Translations under genes and position numbers: made by a program
Origin: Candidatus Nomurabacteria bacterium GW2011_GWE1_32_28
GTDB lineage: Bacteria > Patescibacteriota > Minisyncoccia > Phycocordibacterales > UBA9973
Reading direction: 5' to 3'
NCBI GenBank assembly: GCA_000989515.1
Contig: LBOM01000003.1
Location: forward strand, 111,833 to 175,832
Length of the DNA: 64,000 bases
The notes under the pieces: generated by a model
Seen by the model: only the letters and a program-made list of their open reading frames with translations
Database searches by the model: none
Told to the model about the DNA's origin: nothing
In this document: in pieces, positions 22,683 to 41,194 of the stretch
How the letters are laid out: the number at the start of each line of letters is the position of its first letter
Numbering within the stretch: the stretch's first letter is position 1

Positions 22683-24029
22683 TTATTTTGATTGTAGTTC
22701 CCAGAGATAAGAATCTTTTTTATTTATAAAAAATAGAAAATTTTCATCTTTATCTAATCCTAATTTTATACCATCTATCTCTTCCCCGTCCTCAACTGAA
22801 AGAGGGTCTATTATTTTTGTGGTAACTCCACTTTGAATATTTATTTTCCAGATTTCATCTGAGAAAGAAACTTCACCTTGATACCAAGAATCTGGATAAG
22901 TTAGATTATCTATATATTTAGGTACAGCACAATAAATAGTATCACTTTTGGATCCCCATGTACACTTTTCTGGTAGTGTCTTTAATCCGATCATATTATA
23001 ATCTCCTGTGCTTATATTAAAGACACTTAACGATAGGTTGTTGTCACCATAGAGAACTATTTCTCCGTTTGGGCTTGTTAAGGTAGTTAATCCATTTATT
23101 CCGCCCAATATTTTATCGAAGTCTTTTTTTTCTGTGTCTATTTTATACATATATCCAGGAACGTTGTATGAAGGTTTTGTTGTGACTGTAATTATTTTTT
23201 CATTAGGCCAGAAAGATAACCATTCTGTGAAAGATGAGTCAAATGCTTGAATTTTTGTATCTGATTGTAAAGATTGAATTATTCCAATTATATTATTTTC
23301 TACATTAAATAAATAAAATATTTTTTCTGTATTAGGAGAGATGCTTATATCAGAAACATTCTCTGGTAAAAATGAACCGTTTATTTCGTTCATTCCTATT
23401 GAATCTGCCCCTAAATATTCTTTTGGAAGAGTACCCATAAAAGTTTCTACTGTTTTATTATCTTTTTTAAAATATCTCATCATTATTGATTCTCCATTGT
23501 TTCCAAAAAAAGCATCATATACCTTAGGTATCATAGTAGAAGAGAATTTACGTTCATCTATTCTGTCTGCAAAAGTTTGATAAATATTTCCTGTAAATTT
23601 GTTTACATACCTTAATGCTGGTAAAAATTCTGTTGGTGGAGATATTGGTGTTGTTTCTACTTTTTCGATATTTGTTTTCTCTTCACCTGTATCGGTTGGT
23701 GTTGGGTTTGGATCTACTATGTTTTTAAATCTTTCTTTCGTAAATATTCCATAACCGGCTATTGGGAAGCTAGAAACCTTTTTTAATATTGAATTTTGAA
23801 TGTCTCCTTCTGATGTAGGTATATAACCAGAAACATCGACTGGTTGTGTTGTGTCTCCAGTGTTTGTATTTTTATTATTACCAAATGGTAAAAAATCTGA
23901 AAGGAAATTTATACTTTCTGTTACAACGCCACCTTGATTTGTTGGTTTATAAAAATAAAGAAATACAAAAGCACCGATTGTGATTATTAATAAAACTATT
24001 GTGAATAATATAATGTTTCTTTTTGACAT
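22683..24029 (-). CDS. Membrane-anchored secreted protein (N-terminal TM, Pro/Thr linker, beta-rich domain)
   Basis: 448 aa. Single N-terminal TM (ILFTIVLLIITIGAFVFLYFY), then a PTPTDTGEE linker. This is the first gene of the minus-strand island. Confidence 0.55.
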   Translation of the reverse strand: MSKRNIILFTIVLLIITIGAFVFLYFYKPTNQGGVVTESINFLSDFLPFGNNKNTNTGDTTQPVDVSGYIPTSEGDIQNSILKKVSSFPIAGYGIFTKERFKNIVDPNPTPTDTGEEKTNIEKVETTPISPPTEFLPALRYVNKFTGNIYQTFADRIDERKFSSTMIPKVYDAFFGNNGESIMMRYFKKDNKTVETFMGTLPKEYLGADSIGMNEINGSFLPENVSDISISPNTEKIFYLFNVENNIIGIIQSLQSDTKIQAFDSSFTEWLSFWPNEKIITVTTKPSYNVPGYMYKIDTEKKDFDKILGGINGLTTLTSPNGEIVLYGDNNLSLSVFNISTGDYNMIGLKTLPEKCTWGSKSDTIYCAVPKYIDNLTYPDSWYQGEVSFSDEIWKINIQSGVTTKIIDPLSVEDGEEIDGIKLGLDKDENFLFFINKKDSYLWELQSK

Positions 24030-24040
24030 AAAAATTAATT

Positions 24041-25417
24041 TTATTTAAAAGCCGAAGCACAAGCTGCTTTATCTCCAACCCAATCACCCTTGTTTGGATT
24101 TGCAGTAAGTAATTTTTTTGCTATGTTTAAGTTTGTCGCAGGATCTAATAATCTAGCCTTACAAGTATTATAAAGAGCTTCTTTTCCTGATAATAGACTA
24201 CACGTAAAACCACTAGTATATTTTGGTGCTATTGCGTCTTTTGATGATACTGGTCTATCAAACAAACCAACACAATCTGCTCCTGCAAGACTACCATTTG
24301 CTGCTAAATTAACCTGAAACAAACCAAAAGAAAAAGGTAGACTTTTTCCTGGTGGTTTACAATAGTCAGTACCACTACTAATAGGCCTACCCCCGCTTTC
24401 CATATTACAGATTTTTGACATAGCTGTTGCTGTTGCTGTATCGACTCCAAGAGCAGTGGTTAGATTTGTAACAGAACAAGGGCCTGATGTTAGTGGGGTA
24501 CAATTAATACTTTCACCACTTGCTTGTTTTGGATCATTTATACCTCTGTCATATAGAGGTTGTATTGTTATCTCTGCCTTAGGTAGATTATCCAAACAGG
24601 CGCTGAGCAATTGTGGATTTATTGTGTTTAAAATAAGGTAAGCACCCAATGCTATTAAAAGGCCGAATATCGCATTTTTTACTGTTTCTTTTCCAGCTTC
24701 TTTTCCTGATATTAATTCACTAGACATATACTCTACTCCCCCCATTGTGATCATTACCATGGCGAGTACTGCAGCCATACCAATGATTATTTTGATCATT
24801 ATGTTTAAATAGTTTCCAAACGGGCATGCATTTTTACTTGAATCTGTTTCAAATTCAGTTGGAAGTCCAGGTAAAGAAACCAGTGGAGTATATACTGTGT
24901 TTGTATCTATTCCTTTTCCATTATCTTTTATTGTTTCAGGTGCTGTACATACATTATTAATTATTTTTTCTGATGGGTCACAAACCTTTAGTGAAGTGGA
25001 GGCTGTATAAAAACCCTCGGATCCCTCTGTTGTTAAGGCTGTTGCTTCTATTTTTATGTCTCCAGAAAGTCCATCTGTGTTAAAACTAACATAGCAAGAT
25101 CTAACCCTTGGCGCTGTTGTTAATCCACTTGTGTTGGCTGAAATTGTGCATTTTGCATCTTCAGGTGTGAATCTAAGGTTGGTAAGCACCCCGGAGACAA
25201 TACCAAAAGAAATTGTTTCTCCACCAACAGGTGTAAAGATTTTAGCTGTTATTCTAGAACTCCCACCATTTATTACTGGTTGTTCTGCTTCTATTATAAA
25301 AGGAGTACTTTCATTTGGTTCTCCTGCATAAGTTTTATTAAAAGGAGTAAATAAACTAAATATAAATATTAGTAAATATGTAGAGGCTATTATTTTTTTA
25401 AATGTATTTAATTGCAT
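24041..25417 (-). CDS. Secreted protein with a TrbC/VirB2-pilin-like double-TM hairpin and a C-terminal SLT lytic transglycosylase-like (VirB1-like) domain
   Basis: Signal peptide. Central segment IIIGMAAVLAMVMITMGGVEYMSSELISGKEAGKETVKNAIFGLLIALGAYLIL has two hydrophobic helices with a short charged loop, as in conjugative pilins. The C-terminus has ICNMESGG...FSFGLFQVN, resembling the SLT E-S...GLMQ motif. Many Cys residues. Confidence 0.5.
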   Translation of the reverse strand: MQLNTFKKIIASTYLLIFIFSLFTPFNKTYAGEPNESTPFIIEAEQPVINGGSSRITAKIFTPVGGETISFGIVSGVLTNLRFTPEDAKCTISANTSGLTTAPRVRSCYVSFNTDGLSGDIKIEATALTTEGSEGFYTASTSLKVCDPSEKIINNVCTAPETIKDNGKGIDTNTVYTPLVSLPGLPTEFETDSSKNACPFGNYLNIMIKIIIGMAAVLAMVMITMGGVEYMSSELISGKEAGKETVKNAIFGLLIALGAYLILNTINPQLLSACLDNLPKAEITIQPLYDRGINDPKQASGESINCTPLTSGPCSVTNLTTALGVDTATATAMSKICNMESGGRPISSGTDYCKPPGKSLPFSFGLFQVNLAANGSLAGADCVGLFDRPVSSKDAIAPKYTSGFTCSLLSGKEALYNTCKARLLDPATNLNIAKKLLTANPNKGDWVGDKAACASAFK

Positions 25418-25422
25418 TATTT

Positions 25423-25484
25423 ATTCGTAATTAATTTTTTTGTATTTTAAATTCGTAATTCGTAATTGATAATTCGTAATTGAT
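25423..25484. repeat. Heptad repeat element upstream of the 24041-25417 gene
   Basis: ttttgtattttaaattcgtaattcgtaattgataattcgtaattgattt. In gene sense it reads ...AATTACGAATTACGAATTTAAAATACAAAA, resembling TTACGA-17nt-TAAAAT. Confidence 0.8.
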
Positions 25485-26474
25485 TTAAAAACTAACCTCT
25501 ATTTGTTTACTCATGCTTTGGAAAAGTGTATTTATATTGTTAATATCAATTTTAATTGTAGCATTTCCAGATTGTCCGGCTTCTGGTTTTATAGATAATA
25601 TATTTTTAGGATTTGGTGTTTCTATTTGTTCTTTATTTAAAAACCAATCAAACTTAAGACTTGAAGAATTTAAGTTTTTAGGAGAAAAAAAGTATGGTTC
25701 TATGGTAAGTATCTCTCCATTTGGGTTTATTCTGAATCCATTACTTAAAGCTGTTTCCCATCTTGTACCAGATTCTGGATCATTTTTATAAAAAATGATT
25801 TTAGGATTTGTTGTTTTTAGGGTTATTTTTCCAGAGGCATTTGTATATCCAGATATATCAGATACTTGTACTTCTATGACATTATCTTTATCTAGGTAGC
25901 TATTTATGAAAGTAAAAGAATTCTTACCCCACCCAGAAGATTTTGTCTGTATCTTGCCATCCTTTTTCCATGTGTAAGACAAATTGTTTATGTTTACTTT
26001 TCCATCTTGGTTTATCAAATTTGGTATTGCTGTTACTTTAAATGTTCCTTGACTTGGCGCTAATGCTTTTCCTTTATAAAATGGCGGGACATAAGAATCA
26101 GAGGCCTCCCATAGCATATCTACGTTTGCTGGGTTTATTGTTGTTGTTTTTAATATATTTTGTCCATCAATCGTATCTATTGATACAGACAAGATAGTAG
26201 AATATCCCATATCTTCCATCTTGAAATAAAAAGATTTTTTTCCAATGCCACTATTTTTTTCTTGACCATTTATTGACCAGACTATGTTTGCTTTATCAAG
26301 ATCGGTAGAGTAGCTGTTTAGTGTGGCAGTCACATCTTCTTTTGATTCTGGGTGTTCTGGTGAAATAGTTAAAACAAGATCTGTGCTACGTATTTGTGCA
26401 TTAGCAAAAAATCCTGCAAAAGCTATCATTAGTATGAGTGTAATTATTAAATTTTTATAATTTTTCTTCTGCAT
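25485..26474 (-). CDS. Secreted beta-rich protein
   Basis: 329 aa with an N-terminal signal peptide MQKKNYKNLIITLILMIAFAGFFANA. Confidence 0.5.
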   Translation of the reverse strand: MQKKNYKNLIITLILMIAFAGFFANAQIRSTDLVLTISPEHPESKEDVTATLNSYSTDLDKANIVWSINGQEKNSGIGKKSFYFKMEDMGYSTILSVSIDTIDGQNILKTTTINPANVDMLWEASDSYVPPFYKGKALAPSQGTFKVTAIPNLINQDGKVNINNLSYTWKKDGKIQTKSSGWGKNSFTFINSYLDKDNVIEVQVSDISGYTNASGKITLKTTNPKIIFYKNDPESGTRWETALSNGFRINPNGEILTIEPYFFSPKNLNSSSLKFDWFLNKEQIETPNPKNILSIKPEAGQSGNATIKIDINNINTLFQSMSKQIEVSF

Positions 26475-26493
26475 TTTTACTTTGTATCTTAAA

Positions 26494-26596
26494 CTCGTAA
26501 TTAATTTAATTATATCATTCGTAATTAATAATTCGTAATTGACCTCCCCTTTTTCTTTTTTAAATTCGTAATTCGTAATTGTTAATTCGTAATTGA
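26494..26596. repeat. Extended heptad repeat tract (~100 nt)
   Basis: aaactcgtaattaatttaattatatcattcgtaattaataattcgtaattgacc...taaattcgtaattcgtaattgttaattcgtaattgatt. Confidence 0.8.
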
Positions 26597-26606
26597 TTAT
26601 ATATTA

Positions 26607-28445
26607 TTATTTTCCGTCTGCTTCTTCTAGGTCTTGTTTTGCTTTTTTTATGGACAAAATTTGAGAAGGATCAGATGTTATTATTTGGTCTTCTGTGTAG
26701 GAGGATATTATTTTTATAGCAACATGTTTTAATCCTGCAAAAAATATTCCTTCCCCTACCCCAGACTCTAAAAGAAGATATTTTTCTTCGTCGGTAAGAT
26801 TGAATGTCTTTTGAAGAATATCTATGGTTGTTGGAGACTGTTTTAAAAGAATCTGTATGGAAGAGTTTGTTATTATAGGAATACCATAAGGAGATTTCAT
26901 AAAGTCTGCTGCATCTTGTGTAATAGTAGAAAGACCTAAATAATATTTTCTACCTCTTTTTGCCATAGAGTATAAGAAAGAAGCTGTATCTTCTGATTTC
27001 ATCATCCACCATGCTTCATCTACAACCAACAGGCGTTTTTTTAGATTTTTTCGTATTGTTATCCATATATAGTGCATGACTATATACATTGCAACTGGTT
27101 TTAATTCGTCTTCCATGTCTCTCACAGAAAATACTACAAATTTCTTATTTATGTCTACATTTGATGGTCTATTTAAAAAAGTAGACCAAGTGCCTTTTGT
27201 ATATTTTACCAATCTTTGCATAATAGAATCACTTCCCTCCATACCAGCTAGCACCATCTCAAAATCTGAAAGGAGCGGTGGTTCTATATTTGAAAAATTT
27301 GAATCAGGGGTTATGTCTTTCATTGCATAGGTCTCTGAAATAGCACGGTCAACCATTGAGTCTTCTTCTGGTGAGAGTCCTCCAAGCATTAGTCTAAAGA
27401 GCCCTACTAAGTTTATAATGTTTGACCTTAGTACATCTTCATTTGATTCGTCTTCACGTGGTATTGGTAAATCAAAAGGATTAATGTGGTGGTCTGAAGA
27501 AAGAGAAATATTGAAATACCTTCCACCGACAGCTTCAGCCAAATATTCATATTCCCTTTCAGGGTCTATTACTATTACATCTACGTCAAACATTAAAGAT
27601 CTTAATATTTCTAATTTTGTTGCATAACTTTTTCCTGAACCAGATTTTGCAAATGTTACAGAGTTGTAGTTTTCTAATGAAAATCTATCGAAAATAACTA
27701 AACTTGAATTGTGTCTATTTACACCATACAGTATTCCATTATCAGAAGTTAGATCAAAGGAAACAAATGGAAATACACTAGAAAGAGGCTCTGAATTTAA
27801 TTTCTGGTGAATATTTAGTAGATCATTACCGAGAGGCATTACACTTTTAAAACCTTCTTCTTGTTGGAAAATTGCTGGTTTAATATATATTAATTTTGAT
27901 TCTAGTATTGATTTTATTTCATTTTCAATTTTAAAAAGTTCGAGTTCATTGTCAGCATAGACTGTTATATAAATACTAACGTCAAACATTTTTTGTTGTG
28001 CTTGAATCAGGTTATCTCTCAAGCCTTCTAGGTCTTGGTATGCAGTATCAAGCATTGGGTCACGAACCATACCTTTCTTTTCACGTACATTTATTTGACT
28101 TTGTACCTCAGCTACCTTTTTTTGAAATTGTCGTAGTGCTAAAGATGTATCTATTGGGTGAATAAATATTGAAACATCAAAAACTTTATCTAGATTAATT
28201 ATTGGAGAAAACCAATTGTCACTTAAGAATCTAGGATAAGAAATAATAAAAAAAGTACGAGCTATCTTATCACCCAGATTAATAGATTTTGACTCTATTT
28301 TTAATGCCGAAGGGGCGACTATGTCTTGGAGCTCTAATTTTGCTGATTCATAGATTTCTTCTGGTAGTACTGCTAAAACTGAAGCATTTGCTCCTTTGTT
28401 TGTATCTGTATTCTTTTTTCCTAATAAGTTATCTAAAAATGACAT
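26607..28445 (-). CDS. VirB4/TrbE-family type IV secretion ATPase (C-terminal ATPase part)
   Basis: 612 aa. Walker A VTFAKSGSGKSYATKL and VirB4-type Walker B RLLVVDEAWWMM. Overall VirB4/CagE architecture. Confidence 0.8.
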   Translation of the reverse strand: MSFLDNLLGKKNTDTNKGANASVLAVLPEEIYESAKLELQDIVAPSALKIESKSINLGDKIARTFFIISYPRFLSDNWFSPIINLDKVFDVSIFIHPIDTSLALRQFQKKVAEVQSQINVREKKGMVRDPMLDTAYQDLEGLRDNLIQAQQKMFDVSIYITVYADNELELFKIENEIKSILESKLIYIKPAIFQQEEGFKSVMPLGNDLLNIHQKLNSEPLSSVFPFVSFDLTSDNGILYGVNRHNSSLVIFDRFSLENYNSVTFAKSGSGKSYATKLEILRSLMFDVDVIVIDPEREYEYLAEAVGGRYFNISLSSDHHINPFDLPIPREDESNEDVLRSNIINLVGLFRLMLGGLSPEEDSMVDRAISETYAMKDITPDSNFSNIEPPLLSDFEMVLAGMEGSDSIMQRLVKYTKGTWSTFLNRPSNVDINKKFVVFSVRDMEDELKPVAMYIVMHYIWITIRKNLKKRLLVVDEAWWMMKSEDTASFLYSMAKRGRKYYLGLSTITQDAADFMKSPYGIPIITNSSIQILLKQSPTTIDILQKTFNLTDEEKYLLLESGVGEGIFFAGLKHVAIKIISSYTEDQIITSDPSQILSIKKAKQDLEEADGK

Positions 28446-28448
28446 CTT

Positions 28449-28476
28449 CTTAATTCATAGTTCCTAATTGTTAATT
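28449..28476. repeat. Heptad-family repeat separating the two VirB4 parts
   Basis: ttaattcatagttcctaattgttaattcttaattga occupies the 32-nt gap between the stop of the N-terminal part (28478) and the ATG of the ATPase part (28445). The two parts are in different frames. Confidence 0.7.
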
Positions 28477-28477
28477 C

Positions 28478-29143
28478 TTAATTGATTTCAATTTTTCCCT
28501 CTAATTCTCCAGGGTTAAAAACTTTGTAGAATACTTCTACTACTTCTTCTGTTCCCAGCTGTGCTGATTTTATACCACAACGTGAAAGACCTTGTTGTAT
28601 TACACTCACTCTTTGTTCTAGTTGTGATCTTTTTTCTTCAAAATCAAGTTGGTTTTTCATTTCTTCTTCCTTTTTATTTCTTTTTGAAAACAAATTTGTA
28701 AACATTCCAGATTTTGGACCGAGGTTTGTGTGAGTATAAGGAATCACAACAAAGAAATTCTTTGTCATTATACTTACAGACTCCGTAAAGTTTTTTATAA
28801 ACTCCATATATTCTTTTGTTTGTAATTTGAGTAATGGTTCACTTTGTACTTTCATCCTATTTTCTAAAAGCAAGAGATATCTTCTGATGTCTAATTTTCT
28901 TGATTGTATGGATATTTGTACAGAAAAATCTAATGTGTTTAAAAAGTTTTGAAATTGAAGTATCGTTGCTCTTTGTTCATCGTCTGATTTTAAAGACAAA
29001 TTTACTGAATTTGCAAGTATAATTGCCCTGATTCCTCCATCTTTTAAAACGACAATACCATCACGGACTTCCTTGATTGGTACAAATTCTTGAGTTGGTT
29101 TTGCATTTATCATTTTTTTAAGTCTAGGACATCTAAGCTCCAA
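28478..29143 (-). CDS. VirB4 N-terminal domain-like protein (split from the ATPase part, or a genuine two-gene arrangement)
   Basis: 221 aa. PIKEVRDGIVVLKDGGIRAIILANSVNLSLKSDDEQRA matches the conserved VirB4 N-terminal region. Together with the next ORF it totals 833 aa, a typical VirB4 length. Confidence 0.55.
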   Translation of the reverse strand: MELRCPRLKKMINAKPTQEFVPIKEVRDGIVVLKDGGIRAIILANSVNLSLKSDDEQRATILQFQNFLNTLDFSVQISIQSRKLDIRRYLLLLENRMKVQSEPLLKLQTKEYMEFIKNFTESVSIMTKNFFVVIPYTHTNLGPKSGMFTNLFSKRNKKEEEMKNQLDFEEKRSQLEQRVSVIQQGLSRCGIKSAQLGTEEVVEVFYKVFNPGELEGKIEIN

Positions 29144-29520
29144 GCTAAATCTCTTAATTTGCTTCCACTTAATTGTCTTCTATCATTCGTAATTATCTTC
29201 TCTTTATTCGTAATTCGTAATTGTTCATTCGTAATTTTATTCATATGTCTTTTCCAGATATAAAGTTTGTCTTGCATTGCGAATTTCAATCCAGATTCAA
29301 TCATATCAATGAAAGGTTTACCATTTGGATGATAAAATGTGAGCAAGGCTGATAATCCTGCAATTATTAGTATTGGTATGGCACCGAGCCATATTCCTAA
29401 TGATTTAAATAATATATAACATATTCCAGCACCACCTGCTAAATAGGCAAATTCTTTAAAAGTGAATGGGCCAAAAATTTTGTCTTCTATTTCTAAAAAT
29501 TGTGGAACCTTGAATTGCAT
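29110..29520 (-). CDS. VirB3-like small membrane protein, with C-terminus extended by translated heptad repeat
   Basis: 136 aa. Two TM helices (EFAYLAGGAGICYILFKSLGIWLGAIPILIIAGLSALLTF) lie directly upstream of VirB4. The C-terminal ...ITNEQLRITNKEKIITND is encoded by AATTCGT repeats and overlaps the next gene. Confidence 0.4.
   Translation of the reverse strand: MQFKVPQFLEIEDKIFGPFTFKEFAYLAGGAGICYILFKSLGIWLGAIPILIIAGLSALLTFYHPNGKPFIDMIESGLKFAMQDKLYIWKRHMNKITNEQLRITNKEKIITNDRRQLSGSKLRDLAWSLDVLDLKK
29184..29237. repeat. Heptad repeat inside the 3' end of the VirB3-like ORF
   Basis: cattcgtaattatcttctctttattcgtaattcgtaattgttcattcgtaatttt. Confidence 0.8.
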
Positions 29521-29581
29521 ACTGGGTAGTTAAAAGTTTATAAAGTTTGTAAAGTCATAAAGTTAACTGATGAAGTTTAAA
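29521..29581. repeat. Second repeat family: (AAAGTTTAT / CATAAAGTT)-type nonamer tandem
   Basis: aaagtttataaagtttgtaaagtcataaagttaactgatgaagtttaaaag. Related tracts lie at 29950-29990 (actttatgaactttatgaactttatgaac) and 34190-34230. Confidence 0.7.
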
Positions 29582-29601
29582 AGATAATTAAGTTAATAAT
29601 A

Positions 29602-29949
29602 TTAATCTAGAGACTTGATAAAACCTGATAATAACTTAGAAATCTCTATGCTTAAATTATACATTATTTTGAAATCTTTTTCATGGATATACTTTAATTC
29701 TAATCCCAAATCTAACATAGATCTAGTTTCTCCAGTAGATCCTTTTGCTATAAAAAGAAAGTTTCTTAATTCTTTATTTGTTCTTCTTTCAAATCCTTCT
29801 GCAATATTGTTCATTATCGAGACAGAGGCTCTTTCTATTTGATTTTTAAAACTGAAATCTTTACATGTTTTGAATACACTATAGACAAGAAGTGTTAATT
29901 CCTTTCCTTTTTTCCAAGCTATGATATCTTCAAATTTTTCTATTTTCAT
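29602..29949 (-). CDS. Four-helix-bundle protein of the 23S rRNA IVS / Avd family
   Basis: 115 aa. ASVSIMNNIAEGFERRTNKELRNFLFIAKGSTGE matches the PF05635-type signature (ASxSIxxNIAEG...F..A.GS). Confidence 0.65.
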   Translation of the reverse strand: MKIEKFEDIIAWKKGKELTLLVYSVFKTCKDFSFKNQIERASVSIMNNIAEGFERRTNKELRNFLFIAKGSTGETRSMLDLGLELKYIHEKDFKIMYNLSIEISKLLSGFIKSLD

Positions 29950-29990
29950 TTGCTTTCTACTTTATGAACTTTATGAACTTTATGAACTTT
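29950..29990. repeat. Nonamer tandem repeat (ACTTTATGA)x3-4 directly upstream of the Avd-like gene
   Basis: ctactttatgaactttatgaactttatgaacttttt. Confidence 0.75.
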
Positions 29991-30716
29991 TTACTCTATG
30001 GGCATTCTATAAGGGTCAACTCGTGTAAGTTCAGGTTTATTTCTTTCAGAAATTTTAGTAACATTTGGAATTGAATGATTCGTCTCAACTGTTGGAATAT
30101 TAAAAGATCCTGAAAGTTTTTGTGACAATAATGAAGGTGTATCTTTCTTTTTTTCTTCTAAATTTGTAATTGGTAATTGACCATTCGTAATTGATTTATC
30201 TTTTCCATCTGTTATTTCTAATTCGAAATTTGTAATTCCTAATTGTTTTTTATCTTTATCTTCATTCGTAATTCGTAATTCGTAATTGTTAATTGATTGT
30301 GTGTTTTCAATATGTTTTAACATTTCCTCCCTGCTTTCTATTAAATTTTCATTTATGTTTTCTGTGTTTTTGTTAGTTTTTTTATTTTTTTCAACACGCA
30401 TTACAAGTTCTTCGCGGATTTTTCTAAAAACTTTTTCGTTTATTTCATTTACTAGTTCATCTATTTGAGCTTTTGGTAGATTCATTCTAGTCTCCAATTC
30501 TTTTGGATAGTTTTCTGTATTAGTGAGCCCACAAAGCAATAATTCTGTTTCAATTTCAAGATTTTCTAGTTGTTCAAAGCTATATCCTTTTTCTTCTCGC
30601 ATTTTTATTATTATTGATTTCCAATCAACTGCATCAATAGCTTCTATCGTTTCTTTTGGCAATTCTTCTCTAGCTTTATTTATTTTTATTTGTAGCAAAT
30701 CTATTGTTGTATTCAT
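29991..30716 (-). CDS. Hypothetical acidic protein with a C-terminal segment encoded by heptad repeats
   Basis: 241 aa. C-terminal NNYELRITNEDKDKKQLGITNFELEITDGKDKSITNGQLPITNLEEK is translated from AATTCGT-family repeats at 30161-30296. Confidence 0.5.
   Translation of the reverse strand: MNTTIDLLQIKINKAREELPKETIEAIDAVDWKSIIIKMREEKGYSFEQLENLEIETELLLCGLTNTENYPKELETRMNLPKAQIDELVNEINEKVFRKIREELVMRVEKNKKTNKNTENINENLIESREEMLKHIENTQSINNYELRITNEDKDKKQLGITNFELEITDGKDKSITNGQLPITNLEEKKKDTPSLLSQKLSGSFNIPTVETNHSIPNVTKISERNKPELTRVDPYRMPIE
30161..30296. repeat. Three patches of heptad-family repeats (AATTNNT units) inside the 29991-30716 ORF
   Basis: aaatttgtaattggtaattgaccattcgtaattga ... tctaattcgaaatttgtaattcctaattg ... 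cattcgtaattcgtaattcgtaattgttaattgattg. Confidence 0.8.
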
Positions 30717-33272: not shown

Positions 33273-33310
33273 TTTGTTTCTAACTTTTTTCCTTCTCTAT
33301 TTATTTACTT

Positions 33311-33356
33311 TCTGTATTTTAAATTCGTAATTCGTAATTGTTAATTCGTAATTGAC
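33311..33356. repeat. Heptad element with conserved flank TTCTGTATTTTAAATTCGTAATTCGTAATTGTTAATTCGTAATTGAC
   Basis: The 50-nt string is identical to 34236-34282 and closely related to 40769-40800, 26556-26596 and 25441-25470. It lies ~45 nt upstream (gene sense) of the 30741-33272 start. Confidence 0.85.
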
Positions 33357-34183
33357 TTACCTTTTTTCTTCTCCAAGAAGTTATCTTTTGTAACCACTGA
33401 ATGTCCTAACCTTTTTTCTAATTTTTTACGTGCTCCACCAGCTATATTTCCTCCTGCTTTTGCATCAGATTTTAATTTTGAAATTCCTTTGGAATGCTCT
33501 TTCTTGTGTATTTCTGTCGTTGCTGTTTCAGCAAGCATATTTAACACAAGTTCAAGATTCGTCATATTATCTCTCAGACTTTGTTTTTTTAATTCTTTAA
33601 GATTTTTATATTCTTTTGTCGTGAGTCCTGCCCAAGCCTTCGTGATCTCATCTGTTAGTATAGCAAATTCTTTGCCTTCCTTTACTCCACGGTTTTCCCA
33701 TTCATCAGTTAATGATTTTCGGATTTCAATACTTTTTAATCTTTGATTTATCCAGTTTTGACTATATCCTTTTTGTAGATATGTTTTTAACGCACGATTT
33801 ATAGAAAGCTCTGGGTCTGCTGTTTCTTCTAATCTCTCATAGCCTACACGAGCAAGCCAGAGTTTAAATGGTTCAGCTTTTGGTGATGGAATAGATTGAA
33901 TTAAACGGAACATTACTTCTGTGTCAGCTACATCAGTAATATAATATTTACCATCTGATGCTTGCATTTTCAGATGGTGACATTTTGTCACCATCTCACT
34001 ACCTTCGTCACGAAGTCTTTGAGCTAGCTTGTTCCAGTATTTTCTTGCATCAATACTTTCTGTTAAAACTTTAACTACATCAACAACCGAAAAATACCAT
34101 AATTCTTTTTCAGCATCCCAGTGTCTGCGAATTTCTTTGTTGTCAAAAATTGCTATTTTATTTTTTGTATTTTTCTTTTGCAT
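33341..34183 (-). CDS. Bro-N / DinD-family protein (phage antirepressor-like, DNA-damage-inducible protein D family)
   Basis: 280 aa. N-terminal Bro-N pattern KIAIFDNKEIRRHWDAEKELWYFSVVDVVKVLTES. The C-terminal half parallels E. coli DinD. Paralog of 62223-63065. Confidence 0.65.
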   Translation of the reverse strand: MQKKNTKNKIAIFDNKEIRRHWDAEKELWYFSVVDVVKVLTESIDARKYWNKLAQRLRDEGSEMVTKCHHLKMQASDGKYYITDVADTEVMFRLIQSIPSPKAEPFKLWLARVGYERLEETADPELSINRALKTYLQKGYSQNWINQRLKSIEIRKSLTDEWENRGVKEGKEFAILTDEITKAWAGLTTKEYKNLKELKKQSLRDNMTNLELVLNMLAETATTEIHKKEHSKGISKLKSDAKAGGNIAGGARKKLEKRLGHSVVTKDNFLEKKKGKSITN

Positions 34184-34235
34184 TTTACTTTCTAACTTTA
34201 TAAACTTTATGACTTTCTACTCTCTCCTGTTCTTT

Positions 34236-34282
34236 TTCTGTATTTTAAATTCGTAATTCGTAATTGTTAATTCGTAATTGAC
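34236..34282. repeat. Heptad element (identical copy of 33311-33356)
   Basis: ttctgtattttaaattcgtaattcgtaattgttaattcgtaattgactta. Confidence 0.85.
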
Positions 34283-36712
34283 TTATCGTTTTTTGAAGTA
34301 GTATTCGTAATCAGAAGCATCTTTGAGTATCGTAGATGTGTTTCTTATGTCTATAATCTTATCATAATAATATTCATACACTGTTAATTTATTTCCAATG
34401 AGCTGGAGCTGATATGCTGCCACGTCTGGTTCACTTACACGTATTTCTCTACCGTCTTCAGTGACATAACCAAACATCCTTGCAATTTGATCTGATAGAT
34501 ACCATGCAAAATTTTGTAAATCTGTGCCTTCTTCATAGCCATATAATTTAGCGAATTCTTTGTCTGCCATTATTTGTCTTGTAAAAACTGTTTCTATTCC
34601 TTCATGATATCGCACAACATCACCTTCTCGTGGAGTCACTTTTTGTCCCAATGTAAGAGGTGTTGTATTTATTATACCAGTATTGTTTGTATTATTATTT
34701 CCAGTATTGTTTGTATTGTTGCCGGTTACTCCAGGGATCCAAACACCAGCTACCCATGTTCCAGGAGTCCAAGCATCGTCTACCCAAGATACTGGAGTCC
34801 AAGCACCATCCATCCAAGCTGTAGGAATCCATGTATTGTTTTCCCAAATCTCAGCAATCCATGTACCATTTTCCCAAGATCCATTAGTCCATCCATCGTC
34901 TCCAGTCCAGTCTGTGTCTCCGTTGGTATCAACATAAATATATGCATTGCCACTTGCTGTTCCCTTGTCTCCATTACAAGATACAGAAAAAGATGTTGAA
35001 GATGCAGGACGAACTCTTTGTTGTCCATTTAGACCAACAGAGATTCCATCAAATTTACAAGAAGTAGTGTTTTCAGATGACCAAGTTATCGTTGCTGGGC
35101 CATCTTTTTCTGATAGATAATAAGAGTCTGCTGTTACTCTGACCTTGGGTAATGATTTATAATAATCATCTTCGCCATCTCCACCCTCTCCTTCTCCGCT
35201 AGTATTAACATAAACATATGCATTAGCACTTGCTGTTCCGTTAGGGCCACTACATGTTATTGAATAAGAAGTAGATGATGTAGGTTGAACAATCGCTGGT
35301 TTTCCTGCGCTATTTGTTGCTACTGTATTTTTTACTTCTTTATCTCCAAAAGAACAGGAAGTGGTGTTTGTTGATGTCCAATTTATTGTTGAAGAATCAC
35401 CAGGAGAAATTGTATAAGGATTTGCTGAAAGGATTACTGTAGGGAAAATATTATTATAGATACAAAAAGTTTTTGATTCATTTAAAATATATGGAGGAGT
35501 ACATGTAGGAGTATATCCATAACTATCACACGTAGGATAATTAATAGCACCATTTGTACAATAATCCCAACCAGTACCATTATCACTTCCATCACCCCAA
35601 TTAGAGCCATCGTCTCCTCCATAAGGAGTATTCTTCGGTGCAGCTTTTGTTGTGAAACTAAAAGTAGAACCAGTAATTTTTACAGTATCTTCTCCTGTCG
35701 CCATAAAAATATATTTTGTAGATGGTCTTAATCCTGATAATGAAAAACTTATATTTCCATAAATATTACTACGGTTACCTATGGTGTAAGATTTTTCTCC
35801 GACATCCTTCCAAGAGGGAGCTACTTCTTTAAATGCATATATTTCAGTATATGGTCTATCTTCTTTATATCGGAAATAAGTTTTTAGGTCCTTAACGGAA
35901 TTATAAGAACCATTTAATTTTGCGGACGTTGAAGTTATTTGTGTCGCATCTTTTGTTTCAATTATTGTTTTTAATGGGGCTGTGCGGAAGTCTTTTACTA
36001 TACTGTCTCCACCATAGGCTATATTATTCTTATTAGAAATAATTGCACAATAATAATAAGTAGTATCTGGTATTAAGTTTTCAATTTCTTGAGAAAAAGT
36101 CTGTTCTCCTGTAATTAATTTTAAAAATAAATCTTTTGTTGATTTCATTTTTGTTCCATAGATATCATTACAAAAAATAGGGGCTATTTTTTCTTTTGAA
36201 TATCTAAAATATGCAGTAATTGGGAGTGTTGGATTTGTAGTAGTATAGCCACCCTTTCCCCATAATCTTGCGGTAGTTTGTGTTACCTCATCTGCACCTA
36301 TTGTTTGTATGGAGAGCTTAGAAGTATCTGAAGGAGAAGATACTGGTATATTTTTTACATTTATTGTTATTGTTCTTGGTCCTACTTCTACTTCTGTATT
36401 TCTTTCTTCGTCATACCCATAACAATTAAGTGTGTATACACTTTCTTTTTCATTTGGGGTAACTACTAAATTTCCACTTCCACTTAATGACGACGTATCA
36501 TTTATTTTACAAGATGTTGAATAGTCAGATGAAGACGAAGACCAAGAAAGAGTGACTGACTCTCCATTGTTTATTGAGTAAGAAGAAGCTACAAAGTTAT
36601 TTATATAAAGAAAAAAGGTGTTGTATTCTTGTTGTGCAGAAACATTGTTTATATAAAATGCACTTAAAATAAATATGAATATTATTAGAATTTTTAGTAT
36701 GTTTTTTTTCAT
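34283..36712 (-). CDS. Large secreted repeat protein (Ig/FN-like modules, Trp-rich tandem repeats)
   Basis: 809 aa with a signal peptide. Repeated Cys-containing modules (YTLNCYGYDEE / YSITCSGPNGTASANAYVYV / FSVSCNGDKGTASGNAYIYV) and a W-rich tract WIAEIWENNTWIPTAWMDGAWTPVSWVDDAWTPGTWVAGVWIPG. Confidence 0.55.
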   Translation of the reverse strand: MKKNILKILIIFIFILSAFYINNVSAQQEYNTFFLYINNFVASSYSINNGESVTLSWSSSSSDYSTSCKINDTSSLSGSGNLVVTPNEKESVYTLNCYGYDEERNTEVEVGPRTITINVKNIPVSSPSDTSKLSIQTIGADEVTQTTARLWGKGGYTTTNPTLPITAYFRYSKEKIAPIFCNDIYGTKMKSTKDLFLKLITGEQTFSQEIENLIPDTTYYYCAIISNKNNIAYGGDSIVKDFRTAPLKTIIETKDATQITSTSAKLNGSYNSVKDLKTYFRYKEDRPYTEIYAFKEVAPSWKDVGEKSYTIGNRSNIYGNISFSLSGLRPSTKYIFMATGEDTVKITGSTFSFTTKAAPKNTPYGGDDGSNWGDGSDNGTGWDYCTNGAINYPTCDSYGYTPTCTPPYILNESKTFCIYNNIFPTVILSANPYTISPGDSSTINWTSTNTTSCSFGDKEVKNTVATNSAGKPAIVQPTSSTSYSITCSGPNGTASANAYVYVNTSGEGEGGDGEDDYYKSLPKVRVTADSYYLSEKDGPATITWSSENTTSCKFDGISVGLNGQQRVRPASSTSFSVSCNGDKGTASGNAYIYVDTNGDTDWTGDDGWTNGSWENGTWIAEIWENNTWIPTAWMDGAWTPVSWVDDAWTPGTWVAGVWIPGVTGNNTNNTGNNNTNNTGIINTTPLTLGQKVTPREGDVVRYHEGIETVFTRQIMADKEFAKLYGYEEGTDLQNFAWYLSDQIARMFGYVTEDGREIRVSEPDVAAYQLQLIGNKLTVYEYYYDKIIDIRNTSTILKDASDYEYYFKKR

Positions 36713-36735
36713 TTTTTGTTTGAGATTCTTTCTGT

Positions 36736-39639
36736 TTAATAAATTCCTATAATACTTTCAAATTGACCACTTTGGTATTTGCCATATATATTTGTTCCTA
36801 AGGCTCTTTTTATATTACCCCTAAATGCTTCTTCTTCATCATTTCCAGTAGACCCTTTTCCATCGTGTATTTTTAATGGTATCAAATCACCAATTAGTAG
36901 TCTGTCAGGGAAATCAGAAAAATTACTACCTTGGAACAATACAAAGCTTAAGAATCCTGGGCCCAGTTTATCATTTGTTTCAACCTCAGTCGTTTCTGGC
37001 ATTTTATTTTTAAAACCTACTTCTCCTTCTTTTGTCCAAGGATCTGGTATATCACTTCCATTTTCATAAAGATTATAATCGTAGAGTATAGGGAAAGGAT
37101 ATGTCATTCTCTTTACAGATAGGACGTTGTATCCAATCCATGGAGTTTTGCTTACTATTTCTTTCGTTTCTTCTCTTGATGGGGTGGCGTATCTGTCTGC
37201 GCTATAGGTGTAGGTTTTGTAGTCTTTTGAGATTGTAAATCCTTTTTGTTCTGATTCCGCAAGAGATTTTTCACAACCGTAAGGTCCTTTTAGTAGGTTT
37301 TTATATATATCATCTTTTTTATCTTTGATTTGTTGTAATAGATCGTCTGCACTCGCTATGTCATTTCCATTTACCATATTCATAGACAGTCTACCAAAAG
37401 TATCTATTTGTAGTTTTAATTCATTTTCATAATTTTCTCCACCATCTGGATATTTCTTGTTTAAGTTGTTTACTTCTTCTTTTATTTGACCTAATATATT
37501 TACGATACTTTTTATTTGAACTATTTTATCTTCATTGTTTTTTACCATCTGCCCATAGCCAGTTAATCGATTGAAATTTAATGCTGCTGCTTTTGCAGCT
37601 TCAGGTAATAATTCTGATTTATTTGAAAAATATGTATCATTCATAATTTCAATATATCTGTCTAAAATTCGATTTAACACATTTACGACACCTCCCTTGC
37701 TTGAGATGTTGAGTGCAGCTGAACGGTTTGGTGACCCGTAGTCAGCCAGGATACCAGTAAAGGCTTTAATAATTGATGAATAATAAATTCTGACTTTTCT
37801 TGCATCTGCATCTGAATCATCAGAAAATAAGCTTGTGATGTAACCTATTACTACCCCAAGCGCTGCACCTATTATTGTACCTACGATTGGGACTGCTGAT
37901 CCAAGTGTTGCACCGAGAGCCGCACCACCCAACCATCCTGCTATTACTGTCGCACCGACAGCTGCACCAGCCATTGGTAATAGAGATTGTACTAATCCGC
38001 CAACCTTATCTTCACTTATGTTTTTAAGGCTATTTTCTGTTTCTGGTAAAATGGTATCTGTCACAGCGGCCAATACTTTTCTAGAATCATTCTCCCATCC
38101 TGGATGAGGACCTGGTATACAATAATCTAATTGAGATATTAACGGTATGAGTCCATATGCATTAGATTGTCCATACGTGGCCGAGTTTTTATCAGTATTA
38201 ATTGCGTAGTTTTTCCCGTCCGTTGTAGAAAAGAGTTCTTTGTTTTGTTCTTCAAGTTTATCAGAATATGTTCGCTGTTCATCTATTAAGGCTTGTGTGA
38301 GGTCTGTACGAATATCAAAATTTGGATTGGCTTTTAGCCAAGAACTTGAAAGCTGAGATGGCATAAAATCTTTTTCTGTTTTACTTCTATATTTTTCAGT
38401 TGAACCACTTGTATCAAAGACGAGATTTCCATTAGATCCATCATTTCCTATATTTGCAAATCCTTTTTCCATAATATTAGAAGAGAATTGAGCCAAAAGA
38501 GCATCTAATACAGCAGCAACTGAATCATTTAAATCTTCTACATTTAAATAAGAATTATTTGGATAGTCTATGACATTTGTGGCTGCATCGGAAATCATTT
38601 TTCCTGGAGTTACATATTCCCAATTTCCTCCTCTTGCCTTACATGGATCTTCTTCTCCTGCTTCTAGCGCGGCGTCTACATCAGTTTGTGTCATTTTAGA
38701 ATCGACACTGCAACGCATGTCACCCAAGAACCCATTTGCCTGAGACAGTGCTTCGTGTACATTTTCTGCAGTAGATTGTACTGTTCCTTGTAGTCTACTT
38801 TGTATTTCATTATCAGCCATTATTTTAAAACCAATAGGGTTATTTGCTGGAGATTGTGTCATAGCTGTCCATGCGTCCCACCCACCCTGGCTGAAATCTA
38901 GTTGAAAAGTTTTAGCAGAGTATTCTGGATTAGTGTTTTGAATAAGTTCATTAAGGGAATATCGTGCATTGTCTTGGAATTTATTATTGAAAGCTGTAGC
39001 TGTATTTTGCATCCAAGCTTTTCCAAATGGAAATAATTCTGGATTATTTATTTCTGCACCAAATTGTAGTATTTCATTTTTTGCTATGTCATTAAAAAAT
39101 TTTCCAGGATTTTGTATAAATGCAGGACTGCCATCAAAACCACTATTAATCCAATTGACAGTACTCACTGTTAATTTTTGTAAAAGCATTTTGATGATTA
39201 ATCTTCCAATGCTTTGAATACAAGTAGAGTTTGCATTTAATGAAGCAGTACTTGTTTCAATCTTATCTATTTTTGCTTTGATTTCGTTAAGTTTTTCTGT
39301 ATTAGTAGGATCATTGACTTGAATAGATTCAAAATCTGTTGTTAAGGTTTCTGCTTCTTGTTCCAAGAGTCTTTTTTCTATATCAGCATTATGTTCAGCA
39401 TAAAAATCACCAAGTCCGTCTGTAAGTCCACTTCCGATTCCACTAAATAGATCATTTATTCCACTATTTATTATTTCTTGGCATTGTGGCAAGGCGGCGA
39501 TAGCAGGAGCAAGACCACTCGTGTAAGCTCCAAAACTTTGTGCTTCTACTTTCTTAGGCAAAAAACCTAAAGGCATCAAGGTTATACTTAAGACAAGAAT
39601 AAAAGAAATTATTGAATTTTTAAAATTTTTCTGTTGCAT
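36736..39639 (-). CDS. Large secreted/membrane protein with central glycine-zipper TM segment
   Basis: 967 aa with a signal peptide. Central LLPMAGAAVGATVIAGWLGGAALGATLGSAVPIVGTIIGAALGVVIGYITSLF. No enzymatic motif recognised. Confidence 0.55.
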   Translation of the reverse strand: MQQKNFKNSIISFILVLSITLMPLGFLPKKVEAQSFGAYTSGLAPAIAALPQCQEIINSGINDLFSGIGSGLTDGLGDFYAEHNADIEKRLLEQEAETLTTDFESIQVNDPTNTEKLNEIKAKIDKIETSTASLNANSTCIQSIGRLIIKMLLQKLTVSTVNWINSGFDGSPAFIQNPGKFFNDIAKNEILQFGAEINNPELFPFGKAWMQNTATAFNNKFQDNARYSLNELIQNTNPEYSAKTFQLDFSQGGWDAWTAMTQSPANNPIGFKIMADNEIQSRLQGTVQSTAENVHEALSQANGFLGDMRCSVDSKMTQTDVDAALEAGEEDPCKARGGNWEYVTPGKMISDAATNVIDYPNNSYLNVEDLNDSVAAVLDALLAQFSSNIMEKGFANIGNDGSNGNLVFDTSGSTEKYRSKTEKDFMPSQLSSSWLKANPNFDIRTDLTQALIDEQRTYSDKLEEQNKELFSTTDGKNYAINTDKNSATYGQSNAYGLIPLISQLDYCIPGPHPGWENDSRKVLAAVTDTILPETENSLKNISEDKVGGLVQSLLPMAGAAVGATVIAGWLGGAALGATLGSAVPIVGTIIGAALGVVIGYITSLFSDDSDADARKVRIYYSSIIKAFTGILADYGSPNRSAALNISSKGGVVNVLNRILDRYIEIMNDTYFSNKSELLPEAAKAAALNFNRLTGYGQMVKNNEDKIVQIKSIVNILGQIKEEVNNLNKKYPDGGENYENELKLQIDTFGRLSMNMVNGNDIASADDLLQQIKDKKDDIYKNLLKGPYGCEKSLAESEQKGFTISKDYKTYTYSADRYATPSREETKEIVSKTPWIGYNVLSVKRMTYPFPILYDYNLYENGSDIPDPWTKEGEVGFKNKMPETTEVETNDKLGPGFLSFVLFQGSNFSDFPDRLLIGDLIPLKIHDGKGSTGNDEEEAFRGNIKRALGTNIYGKYQSGQFESIIGIY

Positions 39640-39647
39640 TTTAGTTT

Positions 39648-39778
39648 ACAATTCGTAATTGATTTTATTATATCATTCCTAATTACTAATTTGTAATTAG
39701 TTTCCCACTTTTTTGTATTTTCAATTCGTAATTTGTAATTGACTTCCACTCTTCTTTTTTTTCTAATTCGTAATTGAC
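39648..39778. repeat. Extended heptad repeat tract (~130 nt) between island genes
   Basis: caattcgtaattgatttt...cattcctaattactaatttgtaattag...tgtattttcaattcgtaatttgtaattgacttcc...ttctaattcgtaattgacc. Confidence 0.8.
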
Positions 39779-39781
39779 CTC

Positions 39782-40711
39782 CTATTGTTTTAATAAATAT
39801 TTTTCTAAATCTATTACAGCTTTTATTAGATCTTCACTGTATTTTTGATATTGAGAAAGTCCAGAAAGACCTATGATCGTATCATCTGCAATTTTTTCCA
39901 TATTAGAGACGCTTATTCCAGTATTATTGGAGCTATTTGCTATTTGTAGATGATAGTATTTTAAACTTTTTGGTACATTTGTTTTTATAACTTCTTTCGC
40001 AAAATTCTGATAAGAAATTGCTATTGTTGATAATTCGTTATATTTATCACCGTCATTTGATGTTTTACTTGAAGCAAGTCCGTTGCTTACAATGCTTAGC
40101 TCTCTTCCTATTCCTTCTGTTTGATATTTTTTAAATATTTTTTTTATATTTATGTAATATTCCTCTCTTGAGGTAGTGTCGTCTTTTTCATTTATTTTTA
40201 TATCTATTTCTGAATAACGATCAATCAAATTAGGGTCTATTATTTTTTGTCCCAAAGCATTGGAAAAGCTATCTATCGTATCTTTATCAACTTCCCCCGA
40301 TGATCTCATTGCATTATAACTAGTAAAGAATTGTCTAGCGAATTTTTCAGTTTCTGTTAATTTTGTTTCATTGATGCTTGTTTTTTGTTCTATATTTAAT
40401 TCTTTCTTTTTGTTTTCTATGTATGTTGCATCTGTCATGTCACCGAAAGTTATTTTTGTATTTTTATCTGTACCCCACAAAGCTTCTTCCCAATCAGCTA
40501 TGCCATCACCATCGGTATCATTTTGTATTAATTCTGAAATAGTCTGATTCTCTACTTTAAGTTTGGCTGAACTTTTTTTATTTTCAGTAAGAAAATTCTC
40601 ACCTGAAGATGACATAAAGAAAACTATAAAAACAATTATTCCTAAAATAACAATACCCACTGTTATTAATATAAATTTTTTACTTGGTAGATATTTAAAA
40701 TATTTTTGCAT
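39782..40711 (-). CDS. Membrane-anchored protein with a DxDGDG calcium-binding-like motif
   Basis: 309 aa. N-terminal TM. NDTDGDGIADWEEALWGTD is a thrombospondin-type-3/dockerin-like motif. Confidence 0.5.
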   Translation of the reverse strand: MQKYFKYLPSKKFILITVGIVILGIIVFIVFFMSSSGENFLTENKKSSAKLKVENQTISELIQNDTDGDGIADWEEALWGTDKNTKITFGDMTDATYIENKKKELNIEQKTSINETKLTETEKFARQFFTSYNAMRSSGEVDKDTIDSFSNALGQKIIDPNLIDRYSEIDIKINEKDDTTSREEYYINIKKIFKKYQTEGIGRELSIVSNGLASSKTSNDGDKYNELSTIAISYQNFAKEVIKTNVPKSLKYYHLQIANSSNNTGISVSNMEKIADDTIIGLSGLSQYQKYSEDLIKAVIDLEKYLLKQ

Positions 40712-40768
40712 TTTGATTAGTAATTAATTTATTTTTTATTCTCTTCTTTAAATTCCTGATTGATTTTT

Positions 40769-40800
40769 TTCTGTATTTTAAATTCGTAATTCGTAATTGA
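40769..40800. repeat. Heptad element with TTCTGTATTTTAAATTCG flank
   Basis: ttctgtattttaaattcgtaattcgtaattga. Confidence 0.85.
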
Positions 40801-40801
40801 C

Positions 40802-41194
40802 CTACCTGCTTGTTCCAAAAAGGTCTATTCTCTCTAGTGAGACCATTTTTGATGGCCCTGATTCATGAAAACAAGTTATTAATTCTATTCCCCCGTACCT
40901 ACCTAGTATGAGTTGCCCTGTTCTTAATGCATTTCCAGTTTTTGATATTGTGCTATATGGAATGAAGTAATTCATTGGTGTTCCAGGGGGTGAACCGATC
41001 GTTGAAATCGAGATCGAAGTACCAGGCACATAACAGAGATAGCCAGCACCTTCTAGTGTTTCTATCTCAATGGCTTTTGTGCTTAGTATCTTTCCTCCAA
41101 AAAATCCACCAAAAGAAGAATAAGCAAGAACTATTTTTGTTCCAATAAATAAAAATGAAATAGTTAGCAAAAATAAAATGATGCCTTTTTTCAT
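40802..41194 (-). CDS. Small secreted protein
   Basis: 130 aa with signal peptide MKKGIILFLLTISFLFIGTKIVLA. This is the start-proximal gene of the island. Confidence 0.45.
   Translation of the reverse strand: MKKGIILFLLTISFLFIGTKIVLAYSSFGGFFGGKILSTKAIEIETLEGAGYLCYVPGTSISISTIGSPPGTPMNYFIPYSTISKTGNALRTGQLILGRYGGIELITCFHESGPSKMVSLERIDLFGTSR

Follow-up and report, generated by a model that had tools for sequence, protein, structure and literature searches.

The closest described relatives of the locus reported here are the type IV secretion systems (T4SSs) of the Candidate Phyla Radiation (CPR). In the saccharibacterium Southlakia epibionticum, an essential T4SS cluster is needed for epibiotic growth; it encodes VirB6-like proteins and PF18895 pilins, contains no recognizable relaxase or coupling protein, and carries at SEML1_0008-0010 a PrgI gene, a hypothetical (TrsD-like) gene and a 1839-bp VirB4 gene (Wang et al, 2023; PMC10633639). 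When 3,035 CPR genomes were surveyed, Paceibacterota and Nomurabacteria among them, the VirB4 proteins of the CPR formed a monophyletic clade within MPF_FATA (Quiñonero-Coronel et al, 2025; 10.1101/2025.01.22.634366; Microb Genom 11:001409). The same study reported TrsD homologues in 2,221 CPR assemblies, PrgI/VirB3, VirB6, VirB2-like PF18895 pilins and VirB1 (associated with virB4 in Paceibacterota) as components, an almost complete absence of relaxases, many distant homologues of the type IV coupling protein (T4CP), and a Paceibacterota cluster near dnaA, dnaN, rnpA, rpmH and ksgA (10.1101/2025.01.22.634366). The CPR T4SS was listed as a distinct T4SS group in a 2025 review (PMC12857230). 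Here we analyzed a 64-kb stretch (the window) of contig LBOM01000003.1 from Candidatus Nomurabacteria bacterium GW2011_GWE1_32_28. A block of genes within it is very probably the Paceibacteria (Ca. Nomurabacteria) version of this chromosomal, vertically inherited CPR-clade T4SS, of monoderm type and related to MPF_FATA.

A signal peptide or transmembrane (TM) segment was predicted in nine of the 14 products of the block. The block, the parts of the secretion machine and the conserved proteins encoded between and beside them are as follows.

22683-41194, minus strand: T4SS gene block, 18.5 kb, 14 open reading frames (ORFs) of at least 100 aa with short gaps between them.
39782..40711, minus strand: g309, TM-anchored protein of 309 aa with a TSP3-like DxDGDG..DWEE calcium-binding motif.
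36736..39639, minus strand: g967, large envelope protein of 967 aa with signal peptide, conserved Cys/Trp-rich ectodomain, two central TM helices and a coiled-coil C-part.
30741..33272, minus strand: g843, extended VirB6-like polytopic protein of 843 aa with N-terminal ectodomain, about seven TM helices and a long C-terminal cytoplasmic coiled coil.
29991..30716, minus strand: g241, cytoplasmic protein of 241 aa with a helical N-domain, a disordered linker carrying a translated heptad repeat, and no TM segment.
29110..29520, minus strand: PrgI/VirB3-like membrane protein of 136 aa, immediately upstream of VirB4N and overlapping its start.
28478..29143, minus strand: VirB4N, the TrsD/TraC-like N-part of VirB4, 211-221 aa (ATG at 29113 or TTG at 29143).
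28446..28477, minus strand: 32-nt spacer between the two VirB4 ORFs, a degenerate heptad repeat, GAATTAACAATTAGGAACTATGAATTAAGAAG.
26607..28445, minus strand: VirB4C, the C-part of VirB4, 612 aa, with the distal portion of the VirB4 N-domain and the Walker A/B ATPase domain.
25485..26474, minus strand: g329, secreted beta-rich protein of 329 aa with signal peptide.
24041..25417, minus strand: decorated VirB2-like pilin of 458 aa with signal peptide, immunoglobulin (Ig)-like sandwich (residues 40-158), T4SS_pilin hairpin (199-266) and lysozyme/SLT_3-like domain (300-458).
22683..24029, minus strand: g448, N-terminally anchored envelope protein of 448 aa (TM residues 1-30), the last gene of the cluster.

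VirB4C matched the NCBIfam model NF045971 (VirB4-like conjugal transfer ATPase, CD1110 family) with 378.5 bits (cutoff 325) over profile positions 182-733 of 752, as well as Pfam P-loop_TraG (8e-25), the PDB VirB4 C-terminal domain 4ag5 (4e-38), TrwK (1.5e-7) and residues 228-772 of pCF10 PrgJ (3e-44). Both Walker motifs (GSGKS and DEAW) are intact in its sequence. These matches identify a VirB4-family ATPase of the T4SS superfamily. VirB4N covers positions 2-119 of NF045971 (2e-5), matches VirB4_plasma at 5e-11 and has a precomputed TraC-like PF26593 match, and its matches to VirB4 models are collinear (positions 2-119 and 100-235); it gave no significant match in a PDB profile search and none to PrgJ with hhalign. 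As the N- and C-ORFs match successive stretches of VirB4 models, they together make up one canonical VirB4.

For comparison, one genome per GTDB species was scanned with VirB4C; at least 579 relatives were found, and the loci of the best 80 (76-95% identity, L001-L080) were inspected. These 80 belong to Paceibacteria, Nomurabacteria, Parcubacteria or unclassified Patescibacteria metagenome-assembled genomes, with a few labelled only 'bacterium'. The PrgI protein matched Pfam PF12666 at 33.4 bits (cutoff 27), carries a hydrophobic hairpin at residues 27-65 and was found in 75 of the 80 loci. The 843-aa protein near virB4 was assigned as VirB6-like by its fold; alignment of its family to PrgH by hhalign gave a probability of 2.4%, and precomputed PF19590 flags on three of its homologues were not recovered by hmmscan.

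The 458-aa protein combines a pilin-type hairpin with a cell-wall enzyme. Its structure model (pLDDT 85.8) consists of an Ig-like sandwich, a two-helix hairpin and a compact C-terminal domain. Against PF18895 (T4SS_pilin) the protein scored 19.5 bits, under the cutoff of 26.6, and in the set of 77 hairpin-bearing proteins (76 from 71 related loci plus the window's own) PF18895 was matched by 64 (best 5e-10) and TrbC/VirB2 by six. Through these family matches and the modelled hairpin, a VirB2-like pilin is recognized near virB4. It is not a small pilin made of a signal peptide, a two-helix hairpin and little else, since its 458 aa include an Ig-like N-domain and a C-domain of 160 aa, and no small canonical pilin was found in the window. 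The C-domain keeps the invariant Glu-Ser and GLxQ, and its family matches SLT_3 in 12 of 17 members and SLT in 4 of 17; the domain thus has the features of the lysozyme-like/SLT superfamily expected of a VirB1 analogue.

In the 64-kb window, Pfam searches covered nearly all ORFs of 100 aa or more, including all that reach 190 aa. Among these ORFs there was no relaxase, VirD4 coupling protein, VirB11 or reverse transcriptase. The PilB/GspE protein encoded at 7828 was considered as a stand-in for VirB11 and rejected; with 565 aa and an MshEN N-domain, it reads as a type IV pilus ATPase. Much of the first-pass annotation was borne out by these results: it had proposed a T4SS apparatus with a VirB4 ATPase in two ORFs, a VirB3-like double-TM protein upstream of it, a large VirB6-like polytopic protein, a pilin-like TM hairpin joined in one protein to an SLT/VirB1-like C-terminus, and no VirD4, relaxase or VirB11. 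It had also linked the T4SS to epibiotic host interaction, which the essential Southlakia T4SS supports (PMC10633639), and had suggested an uncharacterized variant, which does not hold, as the CPR-clade T4SS has already been described (PMC10633639; 10.1101/2025.01.22.634366).

Traits of the CPR clade present in the block are the PrgI/VirB3 protein next to virB4, the separate TrsD-like ORF adjoining virB4 and, within the window, the absence of a relaxase or coupling protein from the cluster. The Southlakia cluster (SEML1_0006-0019) is alike in being chromosomal, in the shared order of PrgI, a TrsD-like ORF and a VirB4 of 612 aa, in its large polytopic VirB6-like proteins, in a PF18895 pilin-type protein and cell-wall hydrolase beside virB4, and in the lack of a relaxase or coupling protein in the cluster. 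It differs in an NTF2-like (VirB8-like) gene, which was not identified in the window. Moreover, Saccharibacteria have about six small divergent pilins and separate peptidase and lysozyme genes, whereas the window encodes one hairpin protein fused to Ig-like and lysozyme-like domains. A further difference from the Southlakia system lies in g329, g448, g241, g967 and g309, which are conserved in Paceibacteria and unannotated. CPR-clade T4SSs in Paceibacterota are alike in their position near the origin, close to dnaA, rnpA and ksgA.

The Enterococcus pCF10 Prg/Pcf system (MPF_FATA) has a PrgI family protein as well, its PrgJ is 25% identical to VirB4C over 545 residues, and both systems show the order VirB6-like, VirB3, VirB4, hydrolase and a monoderm design without outer-membrane core proteins. 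In contrast to the window, whose locus has a split VirB4 and a pilin-type protein, lacks T4CP and relaxase and is not mobile, pCF10 encodes a single-chain 796-aa VirB4, VirD4 (PcfC), a relaxase (PcfG), the VirB8-like PrgL and an LPXTG adhesin, and no pilin. The Trs systems of Staphylococcus pGO1/pSK41 (TrsD + TrsE), alone among MPF_FATA subclasses, also have TrsD, homologous to the VirB4 N-terminus, as a protein of its own (10.1101/2025.01.22.634366). The window's N-ORF matched the TrsD model NF041427 at 6e-5, but with 22.9 bits, far under the cutoff of 200, and the Trs systems are carried by conjugative plasmids and include a relaxase and a coupling protein. The traits of a conjugative MPF_FATA plasmid or integrative and conjugative element (relaxase, VirD4/TcpA, mobility) were not found in the block, whose position and gene order are fixed in 80 loci.

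In the proposed mechanism, PrgI and the VirB6-like protein would form a base in the cytoplasmic membrane on which VirB4N and VirB4C dock as an ATPase hexamer, and the extracytoplasmic lysozyme-like module borne by the pilin would open the peptidoglycan. By itself or together with partners not seen here, the hairpin protein could then form or cap a pilus or conduit toward the host cell, across which substrates other than relaxase-piloted DNA would pass, either effectors outward or host material inward. As in Saccharibacteria, such a system would support obligate epibiotic growth. A serious though less probable alternative to an effector exporter is a Ced-like importer, through which host nucleic acids or other cytoplasmic material would be pulled into the epibiont via a VirB2-type pilus. 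The archaeal Ced DNA-import system lacks a relaxase and T4CP and is built from an ATPase of the VirB4 family, a pilus protein like VirB2 and a polytopic membrane protein. The block is alike in this composition. The Ced system is also cited in the CPR T4SS survey (10.1101/2025.01.22.634366). Import would further agree with a 2026 preprint in which an obligately ectoparasitic member of this lineage (Minisyncoccota) is described as forming host-reaching tubular structures and taking up host RNA, and in which VirB4 is linked to macromolecule transfer (10.64898/2026.06.21.733656), and with the general lack of de novo nucleotide synthesis in Patescibacteria. However, Ced is archaeal and imports DNA between conspecifics, nothing in the window shows import, no sequence feature examined points to a direction, and none of the cluster's components was identified as binding nucleic acids. 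A comEC deletion is viable in Southlakia, which shows only that competence is not the essential route.

The setting of the block bears on how the genome came to possess it. On the plus strand it is flanked by YidC (21335-22066) and Jag/R3H (22023-22580), and on the opposite side by KsgA (41227-42174) followed by a UvrD/PcrA helicase. On the Jag side lie yidD and the following genes.

17609-18706: dnaN, origin-side neighbour.
18964-20307: dnaA, origin-side neighbour.
20685-21014: rnpA, origin-side neighbour.

With rnpA, yidD, dnaA and dnaN on one side, the block sits in the replication-origin region, the context expected for a CPR-clade T4SS in Paceibacterota (dnaA, dnaN, rnpA, ksgA) and also found in the relatives. 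In all 80 loci, the order by tblastn was ksgA, (g130, a small sporadic gene), g309, g967, a variable slot, VirB6-like, g241, PrgI, VirB4N, VirB4C, g329, pilin-like, g448, followed by jag, yidC, yidD and rnpA on the other strand and then dnaA. The GC content of the block (0.29-0.36) is no different from that of the flanking DNA. The first-pass annotation had correctly described co-directional genes between jag and ksgA, all 14 ORFs being on the minus strand, but its further view that they form an island inserted there fails, as jag and ksgA were never adjacent in the relatives; nor were the genes scattered in any of the 80 loci. It is therefore very improbable that an integrative or conjugative island carrying a minimal Gram-positive-type T4SS entered by horizontal transfer and was inserted among the core genes of the origin region. 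Such an island would account for the likeness of the component set to MPF_FATA modules, in which the order VirB6, VirB3, VirB4, hydrolase parallels pCF10 prgH, prgI, prgJ, prgK, and for the sporadic Bro-N and 23S_rRNA_IVP genes inside the block (see below). Against it stand the constant order and position, the lack of a relaxase, T4CP or adjoining integrase in the window, the GC content, and the 2025 study's tree of CPR VirB4 proteins, in which the closest homologue lay within the same phylum for 99.3% of proteins and inter-phylum transfer was rare (10.1101/2025.01.22.634366). A single ancient acquisition by the CPR ancestor is possible, yet in this genome there is no island. Hence, because of the same order beside jag/yidC/rnpA/dnaA in 80 loci, the split of VirB4 in 78 of 78 and the uniform GC, the locus is a conserved, vertically inherited core locus by the replication origin.

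The VirB4 ORFs are out of frame with each other. In all 78 related loci compared, VirB4 is split at the same point and never fused, all three frame offsets occur, repeats are present or not, and in three loci an unrelated gene sits between the two parts. The split is thus not damage, and the evidence indicates that it is ancestral; a pseudogene was rejected on the same grounds. That the locus is a decaying remnant, in which a heptad insertion broke VirB4 and left the apparatus non-functional, would fit the degenerate heptad repeat in the 32-nt gap and the shift in frame, but is extremely improbable given the shared split point with or without repeats, the strong conservation of both parts (median identity 72% for VirB4N and 86% for VirB4C), the intact Walker motifs, and a separate TrsD ORF that is reported from 2,221 CPR assemblies and counted among the essential genes of Southlakia.

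Several points weigh against the assignment to the CPR clade and against the functions given to the system. The placement rests on the taxonomy of the hits and on the identity of the best curated model, which is of the MPF_FATA CD1110 family. The genome could encode a coupling protein outside the window. No VirB8-like (NTF2-like) component such as PrgL/TraM was identified by hhalign and PDB profile searches with g448 and g329, and the Pfam scores of the window's own protein for both pilin and SLT_3 lie under threshold. Median identities across the best 80 loci were 86% for VirB4C, 80% for DnaA, 72% for VirB4N, 62% for YidC and 56% for PrgI; VirB4C is thus conserved as much as or more than DnaA, which is unusual for a secretion ATPase, in a comparison that is biased upward for VirB4 by the choice of loci by VirB4 similarity. 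Finally, function and transport direction are carried over from Saccharibacteria and not from experiments in Paceibacteria.

Five lineage-specific proteins of the block are conserved, four in the envelope (g329, g448, g967 and g309) and one cytoplasmic (g241). The gene for g329 directly follows virB4 in 72 of the 80 loci, and g448 is present in 66. The former probably consists of Ig/PKD-like repeats, with faint PKD_3 and Ig_3 matches in 5 of 40 members, and the latter is possibly a beta-propeller, with faint PD40/WD40 matches in 3 of 41; neither gave a significant match in PDB profile searches or any match to PrgL with hhalign. Relatives of g967 occur in 51 loci and are conserved mainly over residues 110-520, without a Pfam or PDB profile match. 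The gene for g309 adjoins ksgA in at least 35 of the 80 loci, and its product had no significant PDB profile match or other informative hit. The g241 gene is always located between the VirB6-like gene and the PrgI gene. Its product carries the motif QKLSGSFxxPxxxTEHS followed by a near-invariant terminal DPYR(E)xPE, and D234, Y236 and K200 are invariant in an alignment of 40 orthologues; it could be a T4SS adaptor or a substrate-like factor. In some species the helical N-domain of g241 is duplicated.

Between g329 and g448, 71 of the 80 loci encode a large hairpin-containing protein of 151-774 aa, and five loci encode two. The cell-wall enzyme domains recognized on these hairpin proteins include NlpC/P60 (11), VanY (8), YkuD (5), Amidase_5 (5), M15_4 (3), SLT (2), SLT_2 (2) and Amidase_2 (1). 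Grouped by sequence, the tails behind the hairpin make up at least 24 unrelated clusters and the N-terminal parts at least 36, and in each of the three closest genomes (VirB4C 95, 92 and 91% identical) the C-terminal cassette differs from that of the window. One interpretation, which we regard as improbable, is that the Paceibacteria T4SS pilin is a tool-bearing subunit, with a conserved VirB2-type hairpin, a variable adhesin-like N-domain and an exchangeable cell-wall-enzyme cassette displayed on the conduit to breach host peptidoglycan, and hence a determinant of host range. Fusions of a pilin hairpin to cell-wall enzymes were not mentioned in the CPR T4SS paper or the other literature searched, a limited library in which absence of mention is absence of evidence only. 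Swappable cassettes on a single pilin-like protein may be a new detail.

The remaining genes of the block are one small sporadic gene and three accessory ones.

40802..41194, minus strand: g130, small secreted protein of 130 aa, sporadic.
34283..36712, minus strand: g809, variable secreted repeat protein of 809 aa in the cargo slot between g967 and the VirB6-like gene.
33341..34183, minus strand: Bro-N/DinD-like protein of 280 aa (Pfam Bro-N, 33.8 bits).
29602..29949, minus strand: 23S_rRNA_IVP four-helix-bundle (Avd family) protein (Pfam, 107.8 bits; TIGR02436).

By tblastn, g130 was detected in few related loci (L001, L049, L057), two of which were confirmed by blastp on called ORFs. The slot occupied by g809 is empty, with g967 and the VirB6-like gene adjacent, in about half of the loci listed, and elsewhere holds an unrelated protein of 89-1180 aa or several small ORFs; relatives covering at least 50% of the 809-aa protein were found in two loci only. 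The g809 gene contains Trp-rich tandem repeats (34663-34808; periods 24 and 30 nt; WTxGxW-type), and its product has Asn/Thr-rich tracts. A Bro-N gene occurs at the place it has in the window in one of the 80 loci. The IVP gene occurs in 13 of 80 at shifting positions, including between virB4N and virB4C, and behaves like a small mobile or selfish gene; inside the T4SS cluster of relatives it was located at 9592-9939 (L068), 9622-9957 (L069), 8750-9094 (L079) and 1371-1688 (L017). The Avd-like and Bro-N/DinD proteins had been recognized by the first-pass annotation and both are real, but the membership in the system that it implied for them and for the 809-aa protein is not supported by these counts; the three genes are sporadic strain-specific insertions, not machine parts. 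An Avd protein of a diversity-generating retroelement was considered and rejected, as the family is 23S_rRNA_IVP/TIGR02436, the position varies, and the scanned ORFs include no reverse transcriptase.

The block is also densely decorated with a heptad repeat, as noted in the first pass, with 18 matches to AATTACG vs 0.03 expected. Minus-strand arrays lie at 25418-25484, 26475-26606, 33273-33340, 34184-34282, 39640-39781, 40712-40801 and 42175-42210. Their recurrent unit, some 45 nt in length, reads (G)TCAATTACGAATTA[A/T]CAATTACGAATTACGAATTTAAAATACAGAAA and lies shortly upstream of many genes, on the coding strand. The unit resembles a sigma-70-like TTAACA-N17-TAAAAT, and from the recurrence of this sequence the repeat may be, or contain, a promoter; a generic promoter scan was not enriched over shuffled sequence (86 found vs 88 expected). 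In-frame heptads inside ORFs, at the C-terminal tail of prgI (29206-29236), the g241 linker (30264-30287) and ksgA (41855-41892), translate as ITNYELR-like peptides. At 315 aa the window KsgA exceeds the median length in relatives, 266 aa, which points to an insertion derived from the repeat in this housekeeping enzyme. A 9-mer repeat (ACTTTATGA, plus strand) at 29533-29564 and at 29959-29990, where it has 3.6 perfect copies, brackets the IVP gene, and a related 8-nt repeat (ACTTTATA) lies ahead of Bro-N at 34187-34216; both may mark accessory insertions.

Beyond the block, just past the uvrD-like helicase, a 794-aa ORF (44320-46704) without a Pfam or NCBIfam match adjoins a DUF5663 protein (46720-47034). 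A second Bro-N protein (62196-63065) directly follows an Eco57I/MmeI-like fused restriction-modification methylase (59376-62156).

The CPR T4SS is the first T4SS reported to be essential for the survival of its own carrier bacterium, and it ranks among the leading candidates for the means by which ultra-small epibionts exploit hosts, which makes correct annotation in Paceibacteria useful. The window adds no new kind of system and is an instance of a described one. It provides a clean reference layout for Paceibacteria in which core and accessory genes are separated, and its five conserved partners (g329, g448, g241, g967 and g309) merit structural study. A pilin-borne, rapidly exchanged cell-wall-enzyme cassette that would be matched to the host envelope is a testable idea.

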